Below, in pieces: positions 3,001 to 64,000 of a DNA stretch of 64,000 bases (positions are counted from its first letter, which is position 1; each line of letters opens with the position of its first letter). The stretch is from a virus. The notes under the pieces are model-generated. The model did not search any database. It worked only from the letters and a program-made list of their open reading frames with translations, and was not told where the DNA came from. Position numbers and translations under genes: made by a program. The stretch is from IMG/VR virus record IMGVR_UViG_3300035676_000002, positions 48,443 to 112,442 of that record; one strand, written 5' to 3'.

Positions 3001-6000
3001 ATTCTTTTAGACTCGCAGTTCCCCACCATAGGATATCATCCATTGCACTATCATCTTGTTTCGTAACCGTAAACATTGCATTGCAGCGCCATGTTGCTGT
3101 TGAATCCCAATTCCCACTACCGGATTTTGCTACCTTGATAATAGCAGTCTCTTCCCCATTATAATCAGCGGTATGTACGGTATCTGAGCACGTCGTTGCA
3201 CTTGTTCCGCTCATCGTACACGTAAGAGATGTATCAACCCAACCATCTGCAACTGTGTGTTTTTGTAAAGTAAACACAGCATCATTCGCAAGGACAATAG
3301 GGGCGCTACAGGTAATAAACATATTTTTAAGCCTAATTGGTTCTGGAGCTTGAAACATGGTTTGGTCAAAAAGGCTCGTAACGGTTGTTTTCCCATTACC
3401 CATATACCATGTCGTAGTATTCGCAGCGACATTTGATCCAGAAAAGCTCAAACTCGCCCTTTCGGGCCATTCTGGGGTTGCTACAACTTTAGGCCAAGGA
3501 CCGCTTCCTGCCGGTATAACCTCCCACCCGCCTCCTTTTATTGTTCCACCGATATCTCGATTATCTCCAAAAATATCAAAAGACTCCCCACTCTCAAGGC
3601 AACCACCTTGATCTACCGCCGAACAGTAGTTTTCCCCCTGCGTACCATTAATTGCACACGTACTAACTCTATCATTATAATATTCTGGAACTGCTTCAGT
3701 ATTTGTGTTTGCCCGATTAAATCCAACAACAGAATTTCCAACATTCGATCCAGTAATAAAAAAGAATCCATTATGTATACATAGGGCATGAGGCGCTATG
3801 TACCCGACATAGTTCGTAAAATCAAATATTGAATTAAAGCCTAGATTATCACGGTCGCTCGTAGCGCCGCCAGCAACTCCGGCTAGTTGCTCCCATTGCA
3901 AACCCCATCCACCACCAACATCTGTCGGCCCATATTCAAGAAAAAGCCGAACGTACCAATTCCCGTTATATGATCCACGATAAGATCGAACAGTAACCTT
4001 ATCACCTCTATCAAAAGTACAATTTTGCGTACACGTATTATCATATCCAGTTGGACTAGCATTATTGATCGTAATAGTAAGATCGGATGCTTTGTCTTGA
4101 GTAATATTATAAATTTGCATCGTGAGGGAATCGTTCGCGTTACCGGCCATTGGTGTAGGCGTAGTTGATCCACCATAAGAAGCAGCAGAAATACCAGTCC
4201 ATCTACCTGAGAGTGGCATTATCCAATAGTATTTATTTTTATCTGTTCCACCAAATTGATAATCTCGCGCAAGCGTTCCATAGCTATAATTACCTGCACT
4301 CGTCCCATCTACGGAATCAAAACTTCCGCCACCAGCATTGAACAAATGGTAGTGTGCCCCGCTGCCACCATTTTGAACTTGCTCAAATGTTGCCGTATAT
4401 TGAAAAGAATTTGACGCTGCTGTAATTTTAATAGAAAATAAATCCCCAGCAGCAAAATCAACCGAATTGGACGAGTCCGAACATTTAGTTAGGCCAGCCG
4501 ATATGCTGCACGTTACCGCTGTATCGGCTTGATTTTTTCTTAAGGTAAATGTTGCTCCATTAGCAATAGCAGAGGGGGATAGAATCCTCATATTCTGCAA
4601 TCGTTTTGCATTAGGCATTACGCCACTATGCATTAATTCATTATTATTACATGGATTATTGCCGTCATTATTAATACAATAATTGGGATTTCCAGCCGTT
4701 GTATTAAAATAGCCAGTAATCATCAAAAGTGGAATATCTGCTGGCGTAAATACTGGTTTTAGCGTTGGGGTAATTGTAGGCGTAGAGGTTTGTGCCGGTG
4801 TTGACGTAACGGTACTTGTTGGAGCAACCCCAGAAAAGCAAGCTGGGGTGCTATTTCTATACGGATGTGCGGTTGGGAGTACGGTAGCGATACCCCACTT
4901 GTGGGCAAGATATCCCTGCACTGTCTCTCTGTTTGCTTGGGAGAGGCTTGATCCGTAAACGATAATTTCTGCAACTTTAGCTTTCGCATCGGGAGTTCCA
5001 GCAGATGCACCAAGCTGGATATCTGTATATCCGGTTCGTGTTGTGCCGGGATTGACTGTGCTGACATTTGCTCCATTGAATGATAGCTTGCTTGATGACC
5101 CATTCCATTCGATAAAATTCTGGAACCACCCAGAAACAGCAGTTGTTCCAATAACAGAGCCATTATAAACAAAACATGATCCAGAGGATGCATTATCGCA
5201 CTTAATTAGGGCATATCCATCACTACGACCTAGAAGGCTATTGTAGTTCTGCACCGTATCGAGTTTTGCAACAATAAAAACGTCTGCCGGGAAAGCAATA
5301 TTTGAAAAAACATCACTTTGCAATATGTCACTTCCGTCGAAAGTAATTGCCCCAAGTCCGTTTTGGACATTGCCATTCCATATTGGCTTGCTAGTATTAC
5401 TTCCGGCGCTATTGAGGGCGTCATAATGAAGCGTTCCATAATCATGCCAATTGCTAATATATTGTCCCTCGCTAAATGGAACCGCATCAGCTTGATACCA
5501 TAATTTCGGTGCAGCAACGTTGTACGCACATCCTGTTGGAGTTGACGTTGCTGTGCCGGTTGATGTTGCCGTACTTGTTGGAGTTGCCGTTCTTGTCGGT
5601 GTTCGCGTTAGGGTCGCAGTTGGAGTATTGGTAGACGCTGGAGTTGGTGTTTGAGTCGATGAATTAAAACAAGACCAAACCTCAAATTGCATAAAATCTA
5701 CATAATTTGTTCCAGCATTCCAATATGGAGTAGTTTGTATTCCTGTTCCGAATAGTCCGTCATTGACAATCCAGTGATCGGGCGTTGTTCCCCATAGATC
5801 AGTAGCCCCACCGAAGCACGTTTCTGTTCGTGAAGCTGGCATGGCGACAGTTTGATAGGCCGGTCCCTTATCATTCCCATATACTGTATTGCCGGTTCCA
5901 ATGCCATTGTTTTGAAATAGATTAACAGAATCCTGCCATCCAGTTCCACCAGTTCCGGTTCCGTACCATGTTACGCATAGCTTAAATCCCTTAATCGTTG

Positions 6001-38623: not shown

Positions 38624-40129
38624 TTATTTTCCCGCAACGGGAGCGTCAGAAAGGATTGTTGAAAAAATACTACGTAATTCTGATTCGGTGGTCAAGGGGG
38701 TTTCTGTGTTTTTTGTAAATAATTTTTCAATACGCTCGACCGCATCTCTTACTTCTTGCGTATCAGTGCTTACTGTAACTTCTGGTTTCTCTTCTGTAGC
38801 TGGTGGAGTTGGGGCAGGAGCAACGCTAGCTGCCTCAATTTCACGTTCTAGCGTTAGAAGTGAATCAAGTTTAGCACAGACTTCTTCATAAGATTCAGTC
38901 CCGACTTTTTGTCGGATAGAATTGAGAACAGCAACAGCTTCAATTTCATCCTCGAAATCTTTTTGGATGATTTCAGCCATTTTCCTTACCGTACTTTCCC
39001 GACTCATAACATCTGGAATCTGAGCTAAGAGTTGACCATCTAGCGCAGCGGCAATTCGCTGCATCTTTTCACCGTCAACGCAGTTTTGGTATGGATTCTG
39101 CCACGGCTCGGGCAATCTTTCCTCTCCATAAATCTGTACGGCAATACTTTCCGCGCTCTCGCGCAATGTGCTACGCTCTGCTTCGTCTGTATACTTTTCA
39201 TCCTTCAGTAGCCCATGAATACTTTCATAAACTAAACCTGACGCAGTATCCCAAGGAGCTTTTTGCTCCTTGGTGGTATAGTGACTTGCAAGATATTCCT
39301 TCATTGGAGGAATTTCTTCACTTGTAATATTGAGAACGCCCTGTTGCAAGCGTTGGGCTATCGCCTCCAATCGCTCGCTCTTGGCCCATTCGTCAACCTT
39401 ACCTCGCACATCAACAACTTCGGTATCTGGCTTATTTTCACCAAGATCAACAATAATCTTTCGTTCAAGCGCAGCTTCATCTTCTGCCGCCACATCAAGA
39501 TACAACGGTGATTCATCTGATTTATCAAATGCATCACGCATGAGATTATTGATAAAGTCAGGAGTCCACACGCCGCTTCGCTGAAGTGCCTGTGGGTCTG
39601 CTGGAATCGGAACGGCTGAGTATTCCATTAGGTCTTGCTCTAGGAAACGGATTCCTGTGACAAAATCCTCTTCGTCGCGCACGAAGTCATATTTCAATGC
39701 TCGCCAACCAGCACTGACTGCATTAAGGAGGCGCTTCTTATAGAGGGACAAGACTTGATCTGCGAATTGATTATCTTCCGCCGAAAGGAAATCAGCTTGT
39801 GAGCGAAGAACTCTGCCAGAGGCAGTTTCAACCAACTTCTCCCATGAGGAGGTTGCAATAGGCAATGTATCACGGCTATGCGCCCACATAACAACCGGAT
39901 TGGTTCGATAGTTTTCTAACCGCCACCCATCTTGCACGATTTCATGCCCATCTCGCTTCACTCCCGGCGAACTCACCGTGAAGATAATACTTCGATCACC
40001 TACCGAATCAGATTTGACAGCAGGGTTTGTCTCAAAAGAACGAATAACGAAATCGTCCTTTCCGACCTTATCCATCTTCTCACGAAAACGAATATAGAGT
40101 GGTAGGTGTTCTTTCTTAGTGGTTTTCAT
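38624..40129 (-). CDS. Prohead protease (HK97 family) with long C-terminal extension
   Basis: RDGHEI...NPVVMWAH...LNAVSAGW...LMEYSAVPIPADPQAL. Confidence 0.88.
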   Translation of the reverse strand: MKTTKKEHLPLYIRFREKMDKVGKDDFVIRSFETNPAVKSDSVGDRSIIFTVSSPGVKRDGHEIVQDGWRLENYRTNPVVMWAHSRDTLPIATSSWEKLVETASGRVLRSQADFLSAEDNQFADQVLSLYKKRLLNAVSAGWRALKYDFVRDEEDFVTGIRFLEQDLMEYSAVPIPADPQALQRSGVWTPDFINNLMRDAFDKSDESPLYLDVAAEDEAALERKIIVDLGENKPDTEVVDVRGKVDEWAKSERLEAIAQRLQQGVLNITSEEIPPMKEYLASHYTTKEQKAPWDTASGLVYESIHGLLKDEKYTDEAERSTLRESAESIAVQIYGEERLPEPWQNPYQNCVDGEKMQRIAAALDGQLLAQIPDVMSRESTVRKMAEIIQKDFEDEIEAVAVLNSIRQKVGTESYEEVCAKLDSLLTLEREIEAASVAPAPTPPATEEKPEVTVSTDTQEVRDAVERIEKLFTKNTETPLTTESELRSIFSTILSDAPVAGK

Positions 40130-51082: not shown

Positions 51083-51279
51083 TGCCCATTTATCAGTACC
51101 TCTGTCCGAAATGTGGTGTTTTTGAAGAATGGATGAGCATACACGCACCAGACTTGACACGCTGCCCGAAGTGTGGTAAAAGTGTTGAGAAGCAATTAGG
51201 CACGGCAAGTCTCCAATTTAAGGGCAAGGGATTTTATATCAACGATTACGGAAAGGGGAAAGGAAGTGGAGCTTCCTAG
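51082..51279 (+). CDS. FmdB-family zinc ribbon protein
   Basis: MPIYQYLCPKCG..FE...CPKCG...FKGKGFYINDY. Confidence 0.88.
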   Translation: MPIYQYLCPKCGVFEEWMSIHAPDLTRCPKCGKSVEKQLGTASLQFKGKGFYINDYGKGKGSGAS

Positions 51280-52168
51280 TTATTCATCAATCTATAATCT
51301 CGGACATAAGGCCATTGCTGATCTTTTTACCAAAGAAGTAATCGTTGAGGAAAAGGTCGATGGAAGTCAATTTGCTTTTGGCGTGCTTAACGGAGAAATC
51401 AAGATTCGCTCCAAGCGTCAAAACATGATTGTAGATTATCCAGAGAAGATGTTTCAGCTTGGCGCACTGACGGCTAAGACGCTTGCGCCATTTCTCAAGC
51501 CAAATTGGATTTACTATGGAGAATTCCTCAGTAAGCCCAAGCACAATTCATTAAAGTACAGTCGTGTGCCGAATGCGAATATCATTATTTTCGATATTGT
51601 GCGAGGAGGAGGCACCGAAGATTATCTACAGTATGATGAAAAGCTCCGTGAATCGCACGATATTGGCCTTGAATGTGTTCCGCTGCTTGATTGTGGACAT
51701 ATTACTGGTCCAGATTCTATTCGTCATTTGCTCGAAAAGGAATCTGTTCTTGGTGGGTCAAAGATCGAAGGAGTTGTCGTTAAGCCAAGCCACTACGATT
51801 GTTTTGGCGTCGATAAGCGCGTGCTCATGGGGAAATATGTATCAGAGGCTTTCAAGGAAACCCATAAGGTCGAATGGAAGCAGAATGATGATATTTTCGT
51901 TTCGCTTATTAAGGCGCTTAAGACTGATGCGCGTTGGGAAAAGGCGATTCAGCATCTACGGGATGCCGGGACATTAGAGGATTCCCCACGGGATATTGGT
52001 CCGCTAATGAAGGAAATTGCAGAGGATATCGAGCGTGAAGAATCCGATATGATTCGGGATACGCTGTTCAAGTGGGCGTTTCCGCGTATTAAGCGTGCAG
52101 TTGTTAGCCAGTTTCCAGAATGGTACAAGCAGCGATTACTGGATAAGCAATTCGATGAAACTCGATAG
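51266..52168 (+). CDS. RNA ligase (Rnl2-like nucleotidyltransferase)
   Basis: Motif I EEKVDGS, YGEF, IIFDI, VPLL, EGVVVK, GKYVS..FKE. Confidence 0.82.
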   Translation: MELPSYSSIYNLGHKAIADLFTKEVIVEEKVDGSQFAFGVLNGEIKIRSKRQNMIVDYPEKMFQLGALTAKTLAPFLKPNWIYYGEFLSKPKHNSLKYSRVPNANIIIFDIVRGGGTEDYLQYDEKLRESHDIGLECVPLLDCGHITGPDSIRHLLEKESVLGGSKIEGVVVKPSHYDCFGVDKRVLMGKYVSEAFKETHKVEWKQNDDIFVSLIKALKTDARWEKAIQHLRDAGTLEDSPRDIGPLMKEIAEDIEREESDMIRDTLFKWAFPRIKRAVVSQFPEWYKQRLLDKQFDETR

Positions 52169-59288: not shown

Positions 59289-59539
59289 CCATTACTATTT
59301 GCCGCCTATGGGATTTAACTGAACGGGAACAACGGACACTTCCCAAGGGTGGCTCTACTCGCGTCTTTTACCTTAAAATTCTATGGGACTCCGGCCTCAC
59401 AGAAATCGTATCCTGCGGTTCGTCCATAGCCCTCGCCAGCCTTGTTGACCGAGCCTATGAACACGGGCGAGAGGATGGATACGCCGCCGCTCGCGCCGAT
59501 CTGACCGTCGAAAGCGAAACTGCCGGATGCTGGAAATGA
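59285..59539 (+). CDS. Hypothetical protein
   Basis: ATGA-coupled ORF; AYEHGREDGY motif. Confidence 0.5.
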   Translation: MTITICRLWDLTEREQRTLPKGGSTRVFYLKILWDSGLTEIVSCGSSIALASLVDRAYEHGREDGYAAARADLTVESETAGCWK

Positions 59540-59969
59540 ACCGCGCCTTCGTTCGCCCCCTTCTTTTTCTCGGGTTCTTCGTTGCGGGACTCTGGTATCT
59601 CTCCTCCTTCTATACCACTCTCTTTGGGCGGTTCTTTGAATGAAGCGTTTTCTCCTTTTCTTGTGGGATACCCTTCTTTGCGTCTTTGGCTTTATCAGCT
59701 TCCTCTTCCTCCTCGCTCTTACTATTAGCTTCTTCCTTCATGGTCCACCCCCTTAGCTTGTTTTTTTTGTTATTTCCTTTGTTATTTACTCTACTTTAAC
59801 TAAGCGCAAGTATTGAATTTATCTTCGCTTTCTTTCTTTTGCTCCTTGACCTTATCGTTGTTTTCTTTGCTAAGTTTTTCGCTCCTTGACATTTTAATTT
59901 GCTTTTGTTTTTTACTTTCGGGGCACCGAGGTATTACGGCGACCCCACCCGGCAAAGCCGGGGGTCCGG

Positions 59970-60510
59970 TGCGGCGTCCGGCGTCGGCGTCGGATTAACC
60001 GGCGTCTAATCCGGTGCGGAACCGTCCCGGCGTCGGCGTCCCGTCCCGGCGTCCGGCGTCGGCGTCCCGGTCGGCGTCCGGCGTCCCGTCCCGGTCGGCG
60101 TCCCGTCCAGCGTCCCGGCGTCCCGTCCCGGCGTCCGGCGTCGGCGTCCGGCTTCGGCCTAGGACGTGTCCGGCGTCGGCGTTCGTGCGTCCCGTCGTCC
60201 GGCGTCCCGTGCGTGCGTCCTAGGCCCGTTCCCGTGCGTCCTAGGCCCGTTCCCGGTCGGCGTCCCGGCGTCCCGTGCGTGCGTCCCGTCCCGGCGTCCC
60301 GGCGTCCCGTCCCGGCTTTGCCCTAGGACGTGTCCGGCGTCCCGTGCGTGCGTCCCGTCGTTCCCGTGTGCGTTCGTGCGTCCTAGGCCCGTTCCCGTGC
60401 GTCCTAGGCCCGTTCCCGTGTGCGGCGTCGGACGCTGAACGCAACGAAGCCGGAACGCTTGCGGCGTCCCGGCTTCGGCTTCGTGTCCGGCTTCGGATTA
60501 ACCGGCGTCT
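59970..60510. repeat. A-poor low-complexity array of GGCGTC/CGTCCC(GG)/GTGCGTCC words
   Basis: 21-bp unit gtgcgtcctaggcccgttccc at 60213, 60234, 60376, 60397; 18-bp direct repeat at 59990 and 60493. Confidence 0.85.
60446..60476 (-). terminator. GC-rich hairpin downstream of the phosphatase gene
   Basis: GAAGCCGG.ACGC / GCGT.CCGGCTTC stem; weak U-tract. Confidence 0.4.
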
Positions 60511-61322
60511 TACTTCGGACGGTTCAGCGAATCGCTGTAGGCTTCAATGTACTTTTCCTGTTCCCGTGTCTCGATAGCTTCGGAACAGTGGACGGTTCGC
60601 ACCGTGTCAATAGCGTCCCGTGCGTTCAATCCCTGCCACACAAGACACAACGCAAGGAACGTCCCGGTTCGACCATGCGAACCGATACAGCACACAACGA
60701 CACGTCCCGACGGCAAGCGTTCAAATAACGCCGACCAAAAGCCGAATTGAACGGACGGGCAAGCGTTGTCAGTCCAATTCAACGAAAGCACCGGAACCGG
60801 CACGAAGTTAAAAGCGTCGAACGTGTCGGCGTCGAAGCCGGGAAGCTTCGGCAACGACGACACGAACCGGGACGGCTTCGCTTTGTACGTGCCGCTACAG
60901 TCAACGACTAACGCCGCACCGGACTCGTTTAGCGTCAACGCTTTCGCGCCGCAAAGCCGGACGGTTCCGTTGCCGTTCGTGTACGTCGTAAAAGCGTCCG
61001 TTCCGTTGTGCTGGCACGACTTCCGGGCGTTGTACCCATAACCGTTCGCAAAACCGTCCCGTCCCGTGTTCCATGCGTTCGTGCGTCCGGCGTCCGGCTT
61101 CGGCGTCGGCGTCACGATTGCCGGACGCTGAAACAATCGGCACGGGCAATTTTCGCACGTCGTATCGTTCGTGTGGAATAATCGCTTGTGACCGCACACG
61201 CACACGGCTTCTAGCGTTGCGTCGTAAAACCCGGCGTCGGCTTGTGCGGCAATCAATGCGGCGTCCGGCTTCCGGCTTTGCTTCGTTGTGGCTTTCTTCG
61301 TTTTGCGTTCCCGCGTTTTCAT
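60510..61322 (-). CDS. Cys-based (PTP / dual-specificity-like) phosphatase with N-terminal Cys/His motif
   Basis: VVVCCIGSHGRTG (CX5R); AI..VR...EAIETREQEKYI; start MKTRER behind AAAGGAA. Confidence 0.85.
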   Translation of the reverse strand: MKTRERKTKKATTKQSRKPDAALIAAQADAGFYDATLEAVCVCGHKRLFHTNDTTCENCPCRLFQRPAIVTPTPKPDAGRTNAWNTGRDGFANGYGYNARKSCQHNGTDAFTTYTNGNGTVRLCGAKALTLNESGAALVVDCSGTYKAKPSRFVSSLPKLPGFDADTFDAFNFVPVPVLSLNWTDNACPSVQFGFWSALFERLPSGRVVVCCIGSHGRTGTFLALCLVWQGLNARDAIDTVRTVHCSEAIETREQEKYIEAYSDSLNRPK

Positions 61323-61350
61323 GGTCGTTCCTTTCATGGTCGTTCCGGTG

Positions 61351-63072
61351 TTACAGCAAAGCGTCAACGGCTTCGGCAAGGAACGGCTTCACGTCGGCAA
61401 GCGTCCCGGCGTTCGTGTGCGTCCCGGCAACCGTCCAGCGTGTTCCCGTGCAATCAACCGGAAGGTAAAACGCACCGGAATTTGCGAACGACTTGGACGT
61501 GGCGTGTGCGTTTGCTTCGGCAACTTTGAACGCTTCCCAAATTTCAACGGCAACGCAAATTTGCTTTTCGGCGTAAGTCGAAGGTCCGTTAACCGGCTTA
61601 AACCGGATTTGCACACGAACGGAACCGGAAGCGTCTAGCGTCCGAATTTGGACGGCAATCAATTTGCCCTTCGGCGTCGTGTACGGCTTTAATGCACGTT
61701 CCCGTTCCCACACGTCGTCCGCGTCGGCGTCCACAATTTCACGCAACGCCGGAAGCGTCCGAAGAATGAATGAAGCGTCGTTGATTGCCGCACCGTTGAA
61801 AAGATCCATTGAACCGAATTTCGTTAGGAACGTGCCGCCATTGTGGCTTGCGTGTACTACGTCGTTCAACTTGATCACGGCTTGCCCTAGCGTCTTGCTA
61901 TTCGGCGTTCGCACGTAAGCCGTCAACGCATTGATAAGGGCAATTGTTTTGTTCGTGCAATCGTTCCATGCCTTGCCGCCGAAGCCGGACGACCATTTTT
62001 TCGTTGCGAAATTTTTGGACGCCGCACAAAGTCGCAAGCTTGAATCGGGCCACATTGCGAACGCTTCGGCGTAAACTTCGGAACGTGACAAACCCTTGTG
62101 CTGGTTATGCCGCAATTCACCTAGGCACGCAGCCGTTCCCAAACGACACGCAAAGTTTAACGCCGCACCTAAAACGAACGCACCGGAAGGCGAAGCCGTC
62201 AACGCAATGGAATTGTGCAATCCGAAGAGAACAACACGCAACGCTTTTTTCGTGTCGTCGGCTGACAAGGGCAAGCCAAGTCCGCGCAACACGTCGGCGT
62301 GGAACGTGCGTTCGCACGAAACTTTCAACTTCATTCCGACGCTTGGTTTGTACGTCGTCACGAACGGGACGCCGGACATTTTTGCGTGGATTGCCGCATG
62401 GCTTGTCATACACGCACCGGACGCATAAACGACGGTTCCCGGCTTGAAATTTTTCACGGCGTGTTCCCATTGCGTGTCCGAATAGTTCAGCGGGTTTTCA
62501 ATGTGCTTAACCGTCACGGCTTGCGGCACGAAGTCCAGCGTGCGTGCGATTCTCTCTCCGGCGCGCAATTGAACGACGTAGACTTTTGAAGCGTCGGCAA
62601 CGACTTCAACGAACGCCGCAACTTTGTCGTCGTCGGCAAGTCCGGCTTGTGTGCGCGGAAGGTTCGCAAGACGTGCGGCAAGGAACAGCTTCCGGCTTCG
62701 ACGCGAACCAGTCGCACCGTCGTTGCCGTCGGCAATCGCAATTTGGTCGTCCGACACGATTGCAGACCATGCGGCGTCAACGGGTGGCATTAGGACGACT
62801 TCGGCTTTTGCATCTTCGGCAATCGACGCTTCCCACAACGCCGACGCTTCGGCTTCGGAACGCACGACACGGGAACCAACGAAGCCGTGACGTGGCGTCA
62901 ACGGGCACGGGCGGCAAAAAGCGTCGAAGCCGAAGTCCGTTTTGAATTGCCGCCAATAGAACAGGAACGCCGCAAGCGTTCCCGCGATTCGGTGCTTTGG
63001 TACGGCAAAACCGGCTTGCGCTAACGCGAAAATTCCGCGTGCTTTTTGCGTCCGAATTTCGTGCAATTCCAT
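61351..63072 (-). CDS. PEP-synthase/PPDK-like phosphotransferase: degenerate ATP-grasp N-domain, phospho-His swivel domain, unknown C-domain
   Basis: KARGIFALAQAGFAVP, VEVV....VYVVQLR, GACMTSHAAIHAKMSGVP; start MELHE at 63072 behind AAAGGAA. Confidence 0.75.
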   Translation of the reverse strand: MELHEIRTQKARGIFALAQAGFAVPKHRIAGTLAAFLFYWRQFKTDFGFDAFCRPCPLTPRHGFVGSRVVRSEAEASALWEASIAEDAKAEVVLMPPVDAAWSAIVSDDQIAIADGNDGATGSRRSRKLFLAARLANLPRTQAGLADDDKVAAFVEVVADASKVYVVQLRAGERIARTLDFVPQAVTVKHIENPLNYSDTQWEHAVKNFKPGTVVYASGACMTSHAAIHAKMSGVPFVTTYKPSVGMKLKVSCERTFHADVLRGLGLPLSADDTKKALRVVLFGLHNSIALTASPSGAFVLGAALNFACRLGTAACLGELRHNQHKGLSRSEVYAEAFAMWPDSSLRLCAASKNFATKKWSSGFGGKAWNDCTNKTIALINALTAYVRTPNSKTLGQAVIKLNDVVHASHNGGTFLTKFGSMDLFNGAAINDASFILRTLPALREIVDADADDVWERERALKPYTTPKGKLIAVQIRTLDASGSVRVQIRFKPVNGPSTYAEKQICVAVEIWEAFKVAEANAHATSKSFANSGAFYLPVDCTGTRWTVAGTHTNAGTLADVKPFLAEAVDALL

Positions 63073-63519
63073 GTTCGTTCCTTTCTTGCCGGGAAGCGTC
63101 CCGGCGTTCGTGACGTGTCCGGCGTCGGAACCGGGAACCGTCCCGGTCGGCGTCGGCGGCGTCGTTGTGTGAGTCGTTGTCATAGCGTCGTTGTACGGGA
63201 CGCCGACGCTGTAGGAAAGCGAAAAATTCCGGCGTCCGACGCCGAAATTGCCTAAGTCGTTGATTTCGCTTCGGAAACTTGCACGCAACTTTATTTTCAC
63301 GGCTTGACTTCGGACACGTCCCGAAGTCGTAAAACGATTGATCGAACGCTAAAACGCACCTAAACCAACGCCGCGGTGCCGCTTTTCCCGTGCAATTCCG
63401 GCAACTTGCGGCGTTGTCCGTTTTATAACGAAAATTGAAAGCGTCTTAATTTTTGCCTGTTCCCGGCGTTCCCGTGTCCCGAATTGAACGCCGGTTTATT
63501 CAAGCGTCATTTTCGCGTT

Positions 63520-63675
63520 CCGTTCGTGTCCGTTCCCGGCGTCCGACGCTTCATTAGAAGCCGAAAATTCCGGCGTCCCGGTCGGCGTCCCGGTGCGTCC
63601 CGGTCGGCGTCCCGGTTCAGCGTCCCGGCGTCGGCGTCCGGCGTCCCGTCCCGGCGTCGGCGTTCCCACACGTCG
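63520..63675. repeat. Second GGCGTC/CGTCCCGG low-complexity array
   Basis: Same words as the 59970-60510 array. Confidence 0.75.
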
Positions 63676-63691
63676 GAATGCATTCTTAAGA

Positions 63692-63720
63692 TTGACAAAA
63701 CCGGCTTGCCGTGCTATTCT
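63692..63720 (+). promoter_or_regulatory. Sigma70-like promoter TTGACA-N17-TATTCT pointing at the DnaA boxes
   Basis: Direct read; TG extension. Confidence 0.6.
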
Positions 63721-63897
63721 CATTTTTGCGAAAACGGGCCTAAAACCGGCTTTTTTCGGATTATCAGACCTTGCCGTTAAAACGCCGGAAACGGGCCTAG
63801 AATCGACGCACGGTTTAGGACGTGTCCTAAGTCGTCCCGGTCGGCGTTCGTGCGTCCTAGGGCAATTGTGGCGTTTTGCCCATATTTTAGGCAAAAG

Positions 63898-63963
63898 TTA
63901 TCCACAGGCTTTTCGGTGGGTTATCCACAGGTTTTCCACAGGGGAACCGGGAAGTTATCCACA
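63898..63963 (+). promoter_or_regulatory. DnaA-box cluster
   Basis: TTATCCACA at 63898, 63921 and 63955; TTTTCCACA at 63932; each preceded by G and followed by GG. Confidence 0.85.
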
Positions 63964-64000
63964 GGCGGTGACGGAATTTGTTAAAGCCCAAAAGGTGACA

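Follow-up and report, generated by a model that had tools for sequence, protein, structure and literature searches.

Why should 4 kb of a phage genome be written in a vocabulary of short DNA words unlike that of everything around it? The window analyzed here is a stretch of 64,000 nucleotides, bases 48443 to 112442 of a single 112,442-bp contig from an uncultured wetland phage (IMG/VR record IMGVR_UViG_3300035676_000002), and at its position 59930 the sequence changes abruptly in composition. An initial annotation, made from the letters alone, took the segment from 59930 to the window end for a first-injected region purged of many adenine-methylation motifs at once. We show here that the segment is one of two deeply diverged alleles of a two-gene cassette, and that each allele keeps to its own restricted set of words through extensive synonymous turnover. 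The explanation we favor, tentatively and with a little less than even confidence, is that this is a first-expressed cassette whose DNA has been selected word by word to survive sequence-specific attack while it is unprotected.

We refer to the cassette at window 59930 to the window end as arm 2, to the homologous first 4 kb of the contig as arm 1, to the right-flank DnaA-box region as R, to the stretch after arm 1 in the contig as zone 2, and to the backbone as the core. L002 is an independent 12.7-kb metagenome contig that carries an arm-2-type cassette. Coverage in wetland sequencing runs was taken from Logan contigs, from about a third of each run.

The composition switch at 59930

The GC fraction rises from ~0.47 to values of 0.59 to 0.75 exactly at 59930, beyond a T-rich spacer (AT skew of −0.49 over 59500 to 59999), and is 0.59 for the segment overall. 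Strand-symmetric dinucleotide odds ratios in arm 2 are 1.67 for CG, 1.78 for AA/TT, 0.48 for AG/CT, and 0.51 for TA, whereas in the remaining 59.9 kb of the window all of these lie between 0.84 and 1.15. Measured against the same remainder, GAG/CTC is reduced to 0.09-fold, CAG/CTG to 0.30-fold, and GAT/ATC to 0.27-fold, and ACG/CGT and CCG/CGG are up 3.5-fold. The counts in the 4071-bp segment, which are 8 for GAG plus CTC, 31 for CAG plus CTG, and 42 for GAT plus ATC, each fall under the minimum of 56 other windows of the same size (range, 66 to 125 for the first; minima of 74 and 118 for the others). Four-mer entropy is 6.3 to 6.4 in the segment and ~6.88 everywhere else, with only the opening 4 kb of the contig as an exception. 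At the boundary 13-mer the change is abrupt on one side only; a gradient in AA/TT, TA, and GC decays across the next 16 kb.

The abrupt switch described in the initial annotation is therefore real, with the GC, dinucleotide, trinucleotide, and entropy shifts all present. The rarity of the three trinucleotide pairs is borne out by the counts above, and the codon preferences claimed for the gene starting at 63072 hold on recount: in codons 1 to 100, Glu is GAA in 7 of 7 cases, Gln is CAA in 3 of 3, Asp is GAC in 3 of 4, and Leu is mainly TTG, and for both arm-2 genes together the fractions are 0.91 for GAA, 0.75 for CAA, and 0.84 for GAC. Two features went unmentioned there. The enrichment of private words matches the depletion of others in strength, CGGCGTC, for example, occurring 47 times on the + strand and 4 times on the − strand, and a homologous segment in another dialect makes up the opening 4 kb of the contig.

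Two alleles of one locus

The segment from 59930 does not mark a genome end of its own: it is a second allele of the first 4 kb of the contig. Arms 1 and 2 represent allelic versions of the same locus on a ~108-kb map, and both are present in the same wetlands. Both arms open with the 13-mer GGTATTACGGCGA and finish at one DnaA-box cluster, and both carry a gene of ~570 codons and a gene of ~270 codons on the − strand in the same order, with protein identities of 55% and 49%, respectively. Aligning the arms revealed non-coding islands that are identical between them, interleaved with unrelated filler. The last 127 nt of the contig are an exact copy of contig bases 3965 to 4091, the DnaA-box region to the right of arm 1, and because of this copy we regard the contig, which comes from JGI/IMG, as a k=127 wrap-around, 127 being the largest k-mer of JGI metaSPAdes assemblies. 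The contig is a rho-shaped graph path that runs through arm 1, R plus ~104 kb of backbone, arm 2, and R again. The phage map assembles as a circle or concatemer that the contig wraps once, hence the presence of both alleles in it.

Independently assembled sequences show the same arrangement. The order in L002 is the right end of the backbone, the arm-2-type cassette, R, and zone 2, with 82.5% nucleotide and 89% amino acid identity to arm 2 in the cassette and ~80% identity in the flanks. Six wetland runs from two studies contain 86 to 99% of the sampled words of the junction and arm 2. In run X4, a Logan contig matches arm 1 over 3994 nt with zero differences and ends 30 nt (k − 1) into R, which makes R a branch node with two paths in and places both alleles in X4. 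Further contigs encode either allele (seven for the arm-1 protein, and contigs of 17.3 kb and 2.9 kb for that of arm 2). Logan cover is empty over zone 2, and over arm 1 in runs X1 to X3, and such gaps carry no weight. Exact IMG/VR searches for the R and L elements gave no match, nor did a phage nucleotide search.

That the change at 59930 might be an assembly chimera or a low-complexity artifact is an explanation we consider extremely improbable. The contig is admittedly not a simple linear genome, since the locus is present in it twice, in different versions, and a 127-mer from its interior recurs at its end, but the join is unbroken in L002, the six runs hold 86 to 99% of the sampled words of the stretch across it, both open reading frames are intact with a third-position divergence typical of real genes, and an identical arm 1 was independently assembled by Logan. 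The join is natural, and the chimera considered in the initial annotation is not what is found. Judged by the graphs alone, a single molecule with both arms as diverged terminal repeats is possible; it conflicts with how terminal repeats are generated.

A private vocabulary for each allele

Compared with core windows of equal size, the arms draw on a strikingly small part of sequence space: 45 to 48% of all 6-mers per arm (about 46%) versus 74 to 79%, and 19 to 21% of all 7-mers versus 33 to 36%. Markov models of order 3 to 4 reproduce this vocabulary, coding parts included, and models of order 0 to 2 fail to do so, which rules out plain composition as the cause; since only orders 3 to 4 fit, the units are words of ~4 to 6 nt. 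The words of arm 1, among them GGGAGCG, AGCGCT, and GCTTCC, are other words than those of arm 2. With the proteins and core codon usage as given, 122 copies of AGCG/CGCT are present in arm 1 versus 26 expected, and 345 of CG in arm 2 versus 148 expected. Enrichment extends across codon junctions, beyond the arm's own codon usage (CGCT, 58 versus 18; AGCGCT, 17 versus 3.4; GACGCT, 13 versus 2.8). Individual words recur to an extreme degree, with 27 copies of CGGCGTCC in 3.9 kb, 29 of AGCGCT in arm 1, and 21 of ACGCGT in the L002 arm. The depletion is strand-symmetric, and words in coding DNA lie on both strands; the 47:4 orientation of CGGCGTC in arm 2 stems from non-coding arrays, which are tandem at 6 to 8, 21, and 163 nt. 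Repeats of 12 to 16 nt in coding DNA are no commoner than an order-4 Markov model predicts.

The vocabulary is actively maintained through synonymous turnover. Between arm 2 and L002, 30% of the codons for conserved residues differ, compared with 30 to 57% in the flanking genes. The 216 synonymous differences yield 295 out-of-vocabulary 6-mers, versus 434 ± 17 for random placement, and the reciprocal test gave 327 versus 457 ± 21. The signature also follows the cassette allele, not the phage backbone. For 4-mer observed/expected ratios, core windows and zone 2 correlate with the core at r of ~0.6, while the arms correlate with it at only 0.12 to 0.17 and with each other at 0.18; arm 2 and the L002 arm correlate at 0.76 despite the 30% turnover of conserved codons.

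Several other sources of the dialect were considered and rejected. It is not a property of the gene family, in that 124 loci with distant homologues show no dialect, and 40 loci around relatives of the neighboring 137-aa gene likewise show none. Patch gene conversion from the arrays is ruled out by the lack of any excess of repeats of at least 12 nt in coding DNA. There is no excess RNA structure (folding z-scores against dinucleotide shuffles of −0.12 for arm 2, −1.4 for arm 1, and about −0.35 for the core) and no A-tract curvature, AA/TT having no 10- to 11-bp periodicity. A Chi-like polarity is inconsistent between the alleles (47:4 on the + strand for arm-2 words, 10:15 overall in arm 1), and the end-proximal array of arm 1 has the opposite G/C polarity to that of arm 2, the top strand being G-rich in arm 1 and C-rich in arm 2. 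Occurrences of ACGGCGA elsewhere in the genome share no common context.

Restriction-site avoidance is genome-wide

The 104-kb backbone (contig 4100 to 108371) lacks 33 of the 64 hexamer palindromes, each expected 14 to 30 times, and CCWGG, expected 143 times; GGTCTC, CGTCTC, GAAGAC, and others are absent as well. GAATTC, AAGCTT, CAATTG, and GATATC are at or above expectation. The forbidden list comes to 53 canonical 6-mers, among which are the 33 palindromes, CCWGG, and three sites of Type IIS. The core, zone 2, and the arms are alike in lacking them, with 7 and 3 occurrences in the two arms versus ~82 expected (5 versus 149 in the L002 flanks). The purge of restriction-type words is a genome-wide property and not special to the segment.

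Selection against such words clearly operates inside the arms too. Relative to sub-word expectation, ACGCGT there is at 0, CGCG at 0.3, and GCGC at 0.24, and none of the 82 CCGG of arm 2 lies within an NCCGGN palindrome. The reverse complement of L002 (5142 to 8278) contains 21 ACGCGT and 47 CGCG and arm 2 (59943 to 63873) contains 0 and 12, at ~82% identity, and this contrast looks like a lineage-specific purge of one 6-bp site on top of a shared dialect.

The rare trinucleotides are another matter. GAG and CTC number 6 and 2 in arm 2 but 72 and 66 in arm 1, where CAG/CTG is normal; with GAC/GTC it is arm 1 that is poor and arm 2 that is enriched. Because the purge is genome-wide and arm 1 is rich in GAG/CTC, a common adenine-motif purge does not define the segment. 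The initial annotation had offered such a purge as the hallmark of the segment, many m6A-based restriction and BREX motifs containing trinucleotides of this kind. The arms, however, obey the list that the whole genome obeys, and the depleted trinucleotides are allele-specific rather than a common set of host motifs, arm 1 being rich in GAG/CTC on the same backbone.

Organization of the cassette

The features of arm 2 and its borders are as follows, in window coordinates unless stated otherwise.

59870 to 59929, + strand: left-flank element at the end of the T-rich spacer, with TTGACA at 59886 to 59891, then ...TTTTTTACTTTCGGGGCACCGA
59930 to 59942, + strand: boundary 13-mer GGTATTACGGCGA, also contig bases 1 to 13, ahead of arm 1
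59943 to 60509, + strand: array A, a non-coding spacer of the private words GGCGTC, CCGTCC, GTGCGTGCGTCC, and CCTAGGCCCGTTCC concatenated
59991 to 60013: hairpin GGATTA-loop-TAATCC inside array A (contig 73 to 95 in arm 1; ~5118 to 5140 in the reverse complement of L002)
60510 to 61322, − strand: phosphatase gene, 270 aa, 49% identical to the arm-1 counterpart
61317 to 61346: perfect 15-nt tandem duplication (TTTCATGGTCGTTCC twice) across the start of the phosphatase gene, start codon and ribosome-binding site included
61351 to 63072, − strand: large gene, 573 aa, 55% identical to arm 1 and 89% to L002
63073 to 63537, − strand: operon upstream region, with islands identical in all three cassettes within dialect filler
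63225 to 63249, − strand: terminator-like hairpin of 11 pairs plus a T run, made of GGCGTC/GACGCC words, in the long leader of the operon
63329 to 63355: conserved island GTAAAACGATTGATCGAACGCTAAAAC in the operon upstream region
63449 to 63422, − strand: leftward promoter-like TTAAGA-16-TATAAA, kept in all three cassettes
63538 to 63663, + strand: array B, of the same private words (GGCGTCCCGG and similar) in the orientation of array A
63692 to 63720, + strand: rightward sigma-70-type promoter called by scan, TTGACA-17-TATTCT with an upstream TG
63874 to 64000, + strand: right flank R, 127 nt, equal to contig 3965 to 4091 and the end of the de Bruijn path
63898, 63921, and 63955 (TTATCCACA) and 63932 (TTTTCCACA): DnaA boxes in R

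The left-flank element is near-identical in L002 over ~60 nt, although the flanks of L002 are otherwise only ~80% identical. The promoter scan called no canonical −10 in it; candidates for its role are a promoter-like element, a packaging site, and a junction site. The 13-mer GGTATTACGGCGA has only two exact copies in 112 kb, and its version in L002 is GGTATTACGGCCA. Also in the T-rich spacer, and alone there between the rightward backbone genes and the 13-mer, is an open reading frame of 43 codons (59610 to 59741, − strand), which has a strong ribosome-binding site, GGGGGTGGA, and encodes a small protein that is both very acidic and very basic. The rightward gene block that ends at the cassette boundary includes an RNA ligase gene (51266 to 52168, + strand; phrog_548, E = 4e-29).

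Array A has words nearly all on the + strand and a higher-order repeat of 163 nt. Its length is kept (567 bp in arm 2, 629 bp in arm 1) and its sequence is not. The hairpin inside it is kept in all three cassettes, with loops in the dialect of each; its stem in arm 1 includes a G-U pair that is required only when the + strand is read as RNA, a hint of a + strand non-coding RNA beginning near the 13-mer. The TTTCATGGTCGTTCC duplication yields two in-frame ATGs five codons apart. In the operon upstream region, conservation points to TTAAGA-16-TATAAA as a probable promoter, one that the consensus scan did not call. The hairpin at 63225 to 63249 may be an attenuator; the T run is missing in its arm-1 counterpart. 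The rightward TTGACA-17-TATTCT promoter is also present in L002, and arm 1 has a similar TTGACA site. Three perfect DnaA boxes and one near-perfect box lie inside 66 nt of R, and the other copy of R continues with a C/G tract and GGCGGAATCT repeats. Perfect TTATCCACA boxes also occur as a pair, 24 nt apart on the + strand, at contig 39351 to 39383, ~9 kb ahead of the window; this is the only perfect copy outside the R cluster and may mark a replication origin.

The 270-aa protein has a basic N terminus, a Cys/His zinc-finger-like motif, and a Cx5R dual-specificity phosphatase domain of the protein tyrosine phosphatase (PTP) fold; a thymidylate-synthase label given to it by PHROGs is spurious. 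The 573-aa protein has an ATP-grasp-fold N-terminal half with a TSHAAIH motif and a helical C-terminal half (AlphaFold pLDDT of 82), and searches of Pfam, PHROG, and PADLOC gave no family for it. Rfam and PADLOC returned no match to known RNA or defense families. The module is widespread in phages, the phosphatase gene lying just downstream of the large gene in 97 of 125 homologous loci on diverse contigs. The orthologues of arm 1 and arm 2 are almost free of indels.

Resemblance to leading regions of known phages

In T5-like phages, only the first-step-transfer DNA is exposed to restriction (EcoRI) and CRISPR (10.1101/866236; PMC10644984), and the injection stop signal of T5 holds paired DnaA boxes (10.1101/866236). 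The sensitivity of Autographiviridae to Type I restriction is determined by the region that is injected early (PMC12455610). In the left terminal repeat of T5 (NC_005859), dmp, a phosphatase gene, and A1 (556 aa) are − strand genes whose reading direction is toward the end, and the injection stop signal lies at the inner border of the repeat. The cassette described here resembles this first-step-transfer region in being a block of a few kilobases at a boundary, with genes read toward the end and a predicted host-type promoter, and in having the phosphatase gene outermost with a gene of ~560 to 570 codons behind it. Its inner border, like that of T5, is an untranslated region with paired DnaA boxes and many repeats, and in both cases the coding part is poorly conserved among relatives and the stop region conserved. 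There is, however, no homology to dmp, A1, or A2 by Pfam or PHROG, the terminase large subunit (TerL) is unrelated, and T5 offers no parallel to two deeply diverged alleles in private vocabularies on one backbone. The comparison is one of sequence layout, and terminal repeats and two-step entry are features of T5. The leading regions of Autographiviridae are comparable in that the motif content of the early region, and not that of the genome as a whole, is decisive, and in their high variability between close relatives; those regions differ in the presence or absence of single motifs, and no restricted vocabulary, word arrays, or allele-specific signatures have been described for them.

The proposal in the initial annotation that the segment is a leading region stands in part. 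It is supported by the sharply bounded cassette of early type, by the one-sided edge and decaying gradient at the 13-mer, by the T5-like layout, and by the contig start, which falls exactly on the 13-mer, whereas a simple k=127 branch would put it 114 nt upstream. The adenine-motif purge on which it was built is not supported. Transcription is predicted to converge on the 13-mer point, toward which both cassette genes, on the − strand, are read.

Explanations for the dialect

In the explanation we favor, host machinery would read the cassette before any phage protection is in place, as it does the first-step-transfer region of T5 or the leading region of T7, and the cassette DNA would be selected at the level of 4- to 6-nt words against sequence-specific attack. 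The attack could come from host restriction-type nucleases, from an early function of the cassette itself, or from both. The cassette carries one leftward operon, with an ATP-grasp-type enzyme followed by a zinc-finger/dual-specificity phosphatase, set between two word arrays. Each allele would represent one self-consistent vocabulary, its non-coding stretches having drifted into slippage-expanded runs of permitted words, and heterogeneity in hosts or defenses would keep both alleles in one population. The early timing, the order of entry, and the selective agent are the conjectural parts of this scheme.

A number of observations weigh against it. On the physical ends, the arm-1 contig from X4 runs 19 nt past the 13-mer, an overhang that may be a continuation of the shared left flank (a k=31 branch would leave 17 nt) or some other sequence, and the best TerL matches are at most 25% identical and belong to unrelated phages, with no relative of known packaging type. 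The first-step-transfer DNA of T5 has ordinary k-mer diversity. The protection to be gained is modest, in that the chance of carrying a random Type I bipartite site is 0.27 to 0.30 in the arms versus 0.36, and the chance that a random 6-mer is present is 0.45 versus 0.77 in the core. Observed/expected ratios for 4-bp palindromes place the arm-2 window (0.69) within the core range of 0.62 to 0.89, with arm 1 the sole outlier at 0.52. The arms are not an amplified version of the core avoidance profile, a possibility ruled out by 4- to 5-mer signature correlations of only 0.1 to 0.17, and ~570 bp of kept word arrays is not explained by avoidance alone. Restriction avoidance alone does not explain the word set of each version, and the purge put forward in the initial annotation is not a sufficient account, given that enrichment of words is at least as strong as depletion and the gain against Type I sites is so small. 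Finally, the dialect tracks the allele, not the backbone. The same backbone occurs with either dialect, and the ~80% identical backbone of L002 occurs with that of arm 2, which is awkward for purely host-driven selection and points to either a link between allele and host defense or a cause inside the cassette.

Causes inside the cassette take more than one form. The early enzymes of each allele, or a partner that they recruit, might tell DNA apart by its words, so that the vocabulary would be a private self/non-self code built on k-mers instead of DNA modification; we hold this to be doubtful. In that case the cassette would escape its own weapon unseen or be recognized as self, unlike the DNA of the host or of competing phages, and the alleles would be comparable to incompatibility types, which is just as doubtful a proposition. 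A plainer self-immunity, in which the two early enzymes or their complex act on DNA, each allele lacks the words that its own enzymes attack, and the remaining genome is protected by later entry or by shut-off, seems to us rather improbable. Such logic has been proposed for T5 by Davison, for first-step-transfer DNA, with A1 proposed to act on DNA (10.1101/866236). The dialect does co-vary with the only allele-specific trans factors, namely the two proteins, and its strand-symmetric depletion argues for an action on DNA rather than RNA; but neither protein, one with an ATP-grasp fold and the other a Cx5R phosphatase, resembles a nuclease or DNA-modifying enzyme, and none of the 97 of 125 other phage loci that have the gene pair shows a dialect. 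Alternatively, the words could be positive signals, recognition motifs for a virion-delivered or host DNA-binding protein or a modification enzyme. We rate this as unlikely, if not to be dismissed lightly. The factor would use arrays A and B as nucleation sites, and its role would be to coat, mark, pause, or time the segment, with a motif that differs per allele. The massive enrichment of CGGCGTCC (27 copies), AGCGCT (29), and, in the L002 arm, ACGCGT (21) would fit, as would arrays on both sides of the operon, the same words dispersed in genes beyond codon usage, an array length kept while the sequence is not, and a signature that tracks the allele. Yet no allele-specific DNA-binding protein is evident among the only two proteins that the cassette encodes, and both alleles retain the zinc-finger motif of the phosphatase. 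The arrays differ in orientation to the boundary (top strand G-rich in arm 1, C-rich in arm 2), words in coding DNA lie on both strands, and the primary enrichment (AGCG, ACGC) is in large part the counterpart of palindrome avoidance (AGCT, CGCG, ACGT, GCGC).

Two further explanations dispense with word-specific function. Under cryptic simplicity, slippage, unequal exchange, or short templated repair would homogenize the words and selection would act on the proteins only. The multi-scale tandem arrays (6 to 8, 21, and 163 nt), the 15-nt duplication at the start codon, and a signature intrinsic to the cassette are all of the expected kind, but the 12- to 16-nt repeats in coding DNA fit an order-4 Markov model and leave no sign of copied patches, the orthologues are almost indel-free, and the arms obey the genome's forbidden list, so that word selection does operate there. 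No basis is known, moreover, for a mutational bias that would be limited to 4 kb and would not be the same in the two alleles, and we give this explanation only a slim chance. Even less credible, and in our view highly improbable, is a foreign origin, each arm having been imported from a donor with such a composition throughout its genome and not yet ameliorated. The 4- to 5-mer signatures of the arms are indeed unrelated to the core and to each other, and proteins diverged by 45 to 51% lie beside 100% identical flanks. Against this, L002, with its ~80% identical backbone, has the same dialect confined to the same cassette, the arms obey the forbidden 6-mers of the backbone, islands identical in both alleles interleave with filler, and none of ~165 loci shows such a composition. 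We also know of no genome with odds ratios such as 0.47 for AG/CT throughout, which counts against an import.

Relation to other systems and implications

Avoidance of restriction sites, palindromes in particular, is said to have been described in phage genomes by Sharp in 1986 and by Rocha et al. in 2001. The whole genome here conforms, with 33 hexamer palindromes, CCWGG, and a number of Type IIS sites missing, and the arms keep to the same list. Such avoidance removes ~2% of 6-mers, however, whereas the arms lack ~54% and enrich private words besides; their vocabulary is a further layer on top of known avoidance. The cryptic simplicity of slippage-prone DNA, reportedly set out by Tautz, Trick and Dover in 1986, is similar in its scrambled runs of a few short motifs common to separate stretches of a locus, but the bias here runs through conserved, indel-free coding DNA without long repeats and respects the forbidden list. 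Lambdoid phages have allelic specificity modules, such as the immunity regions and the cosB/Nu1 segments of lambda versus phage 21, which are likewise deeply diverged, interchangeable cassettes between conserved flanks, each with its own short DNA sites. In those modules, a few operator or binding sites are matched to a binder that the cassette itself encodes; here the whole 4 kb is involved and no matching binder is evident. Among the closest known systems, none pairs a restricted vocabulary in both coding and non-coding DNA with maintained, allele-specific signatures.

A methodological consequence is that a de Bruijn contig can silently hold two alleles at its two ends, which matters for calls of genome length and completeness. 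For phage biology, selection on DNA words has been known as the loss of a few restriction sites, and here a 4-kb unit is confined to less than half of 6-mer space, with at least two mutually unrelated vocabularies on one backbone, kept through extensive synonymous turnover. If defense pressure on first-entering DNA is the cause, this would be the most extreme case so far, and it would provide a sequence-only marker of leading regions and of entry polarity in uncultured phages. If the cause is instead the cassette's own proteins or an unknown binder, the two vocabularies would represent a new kind of sequence-based self-recognition.

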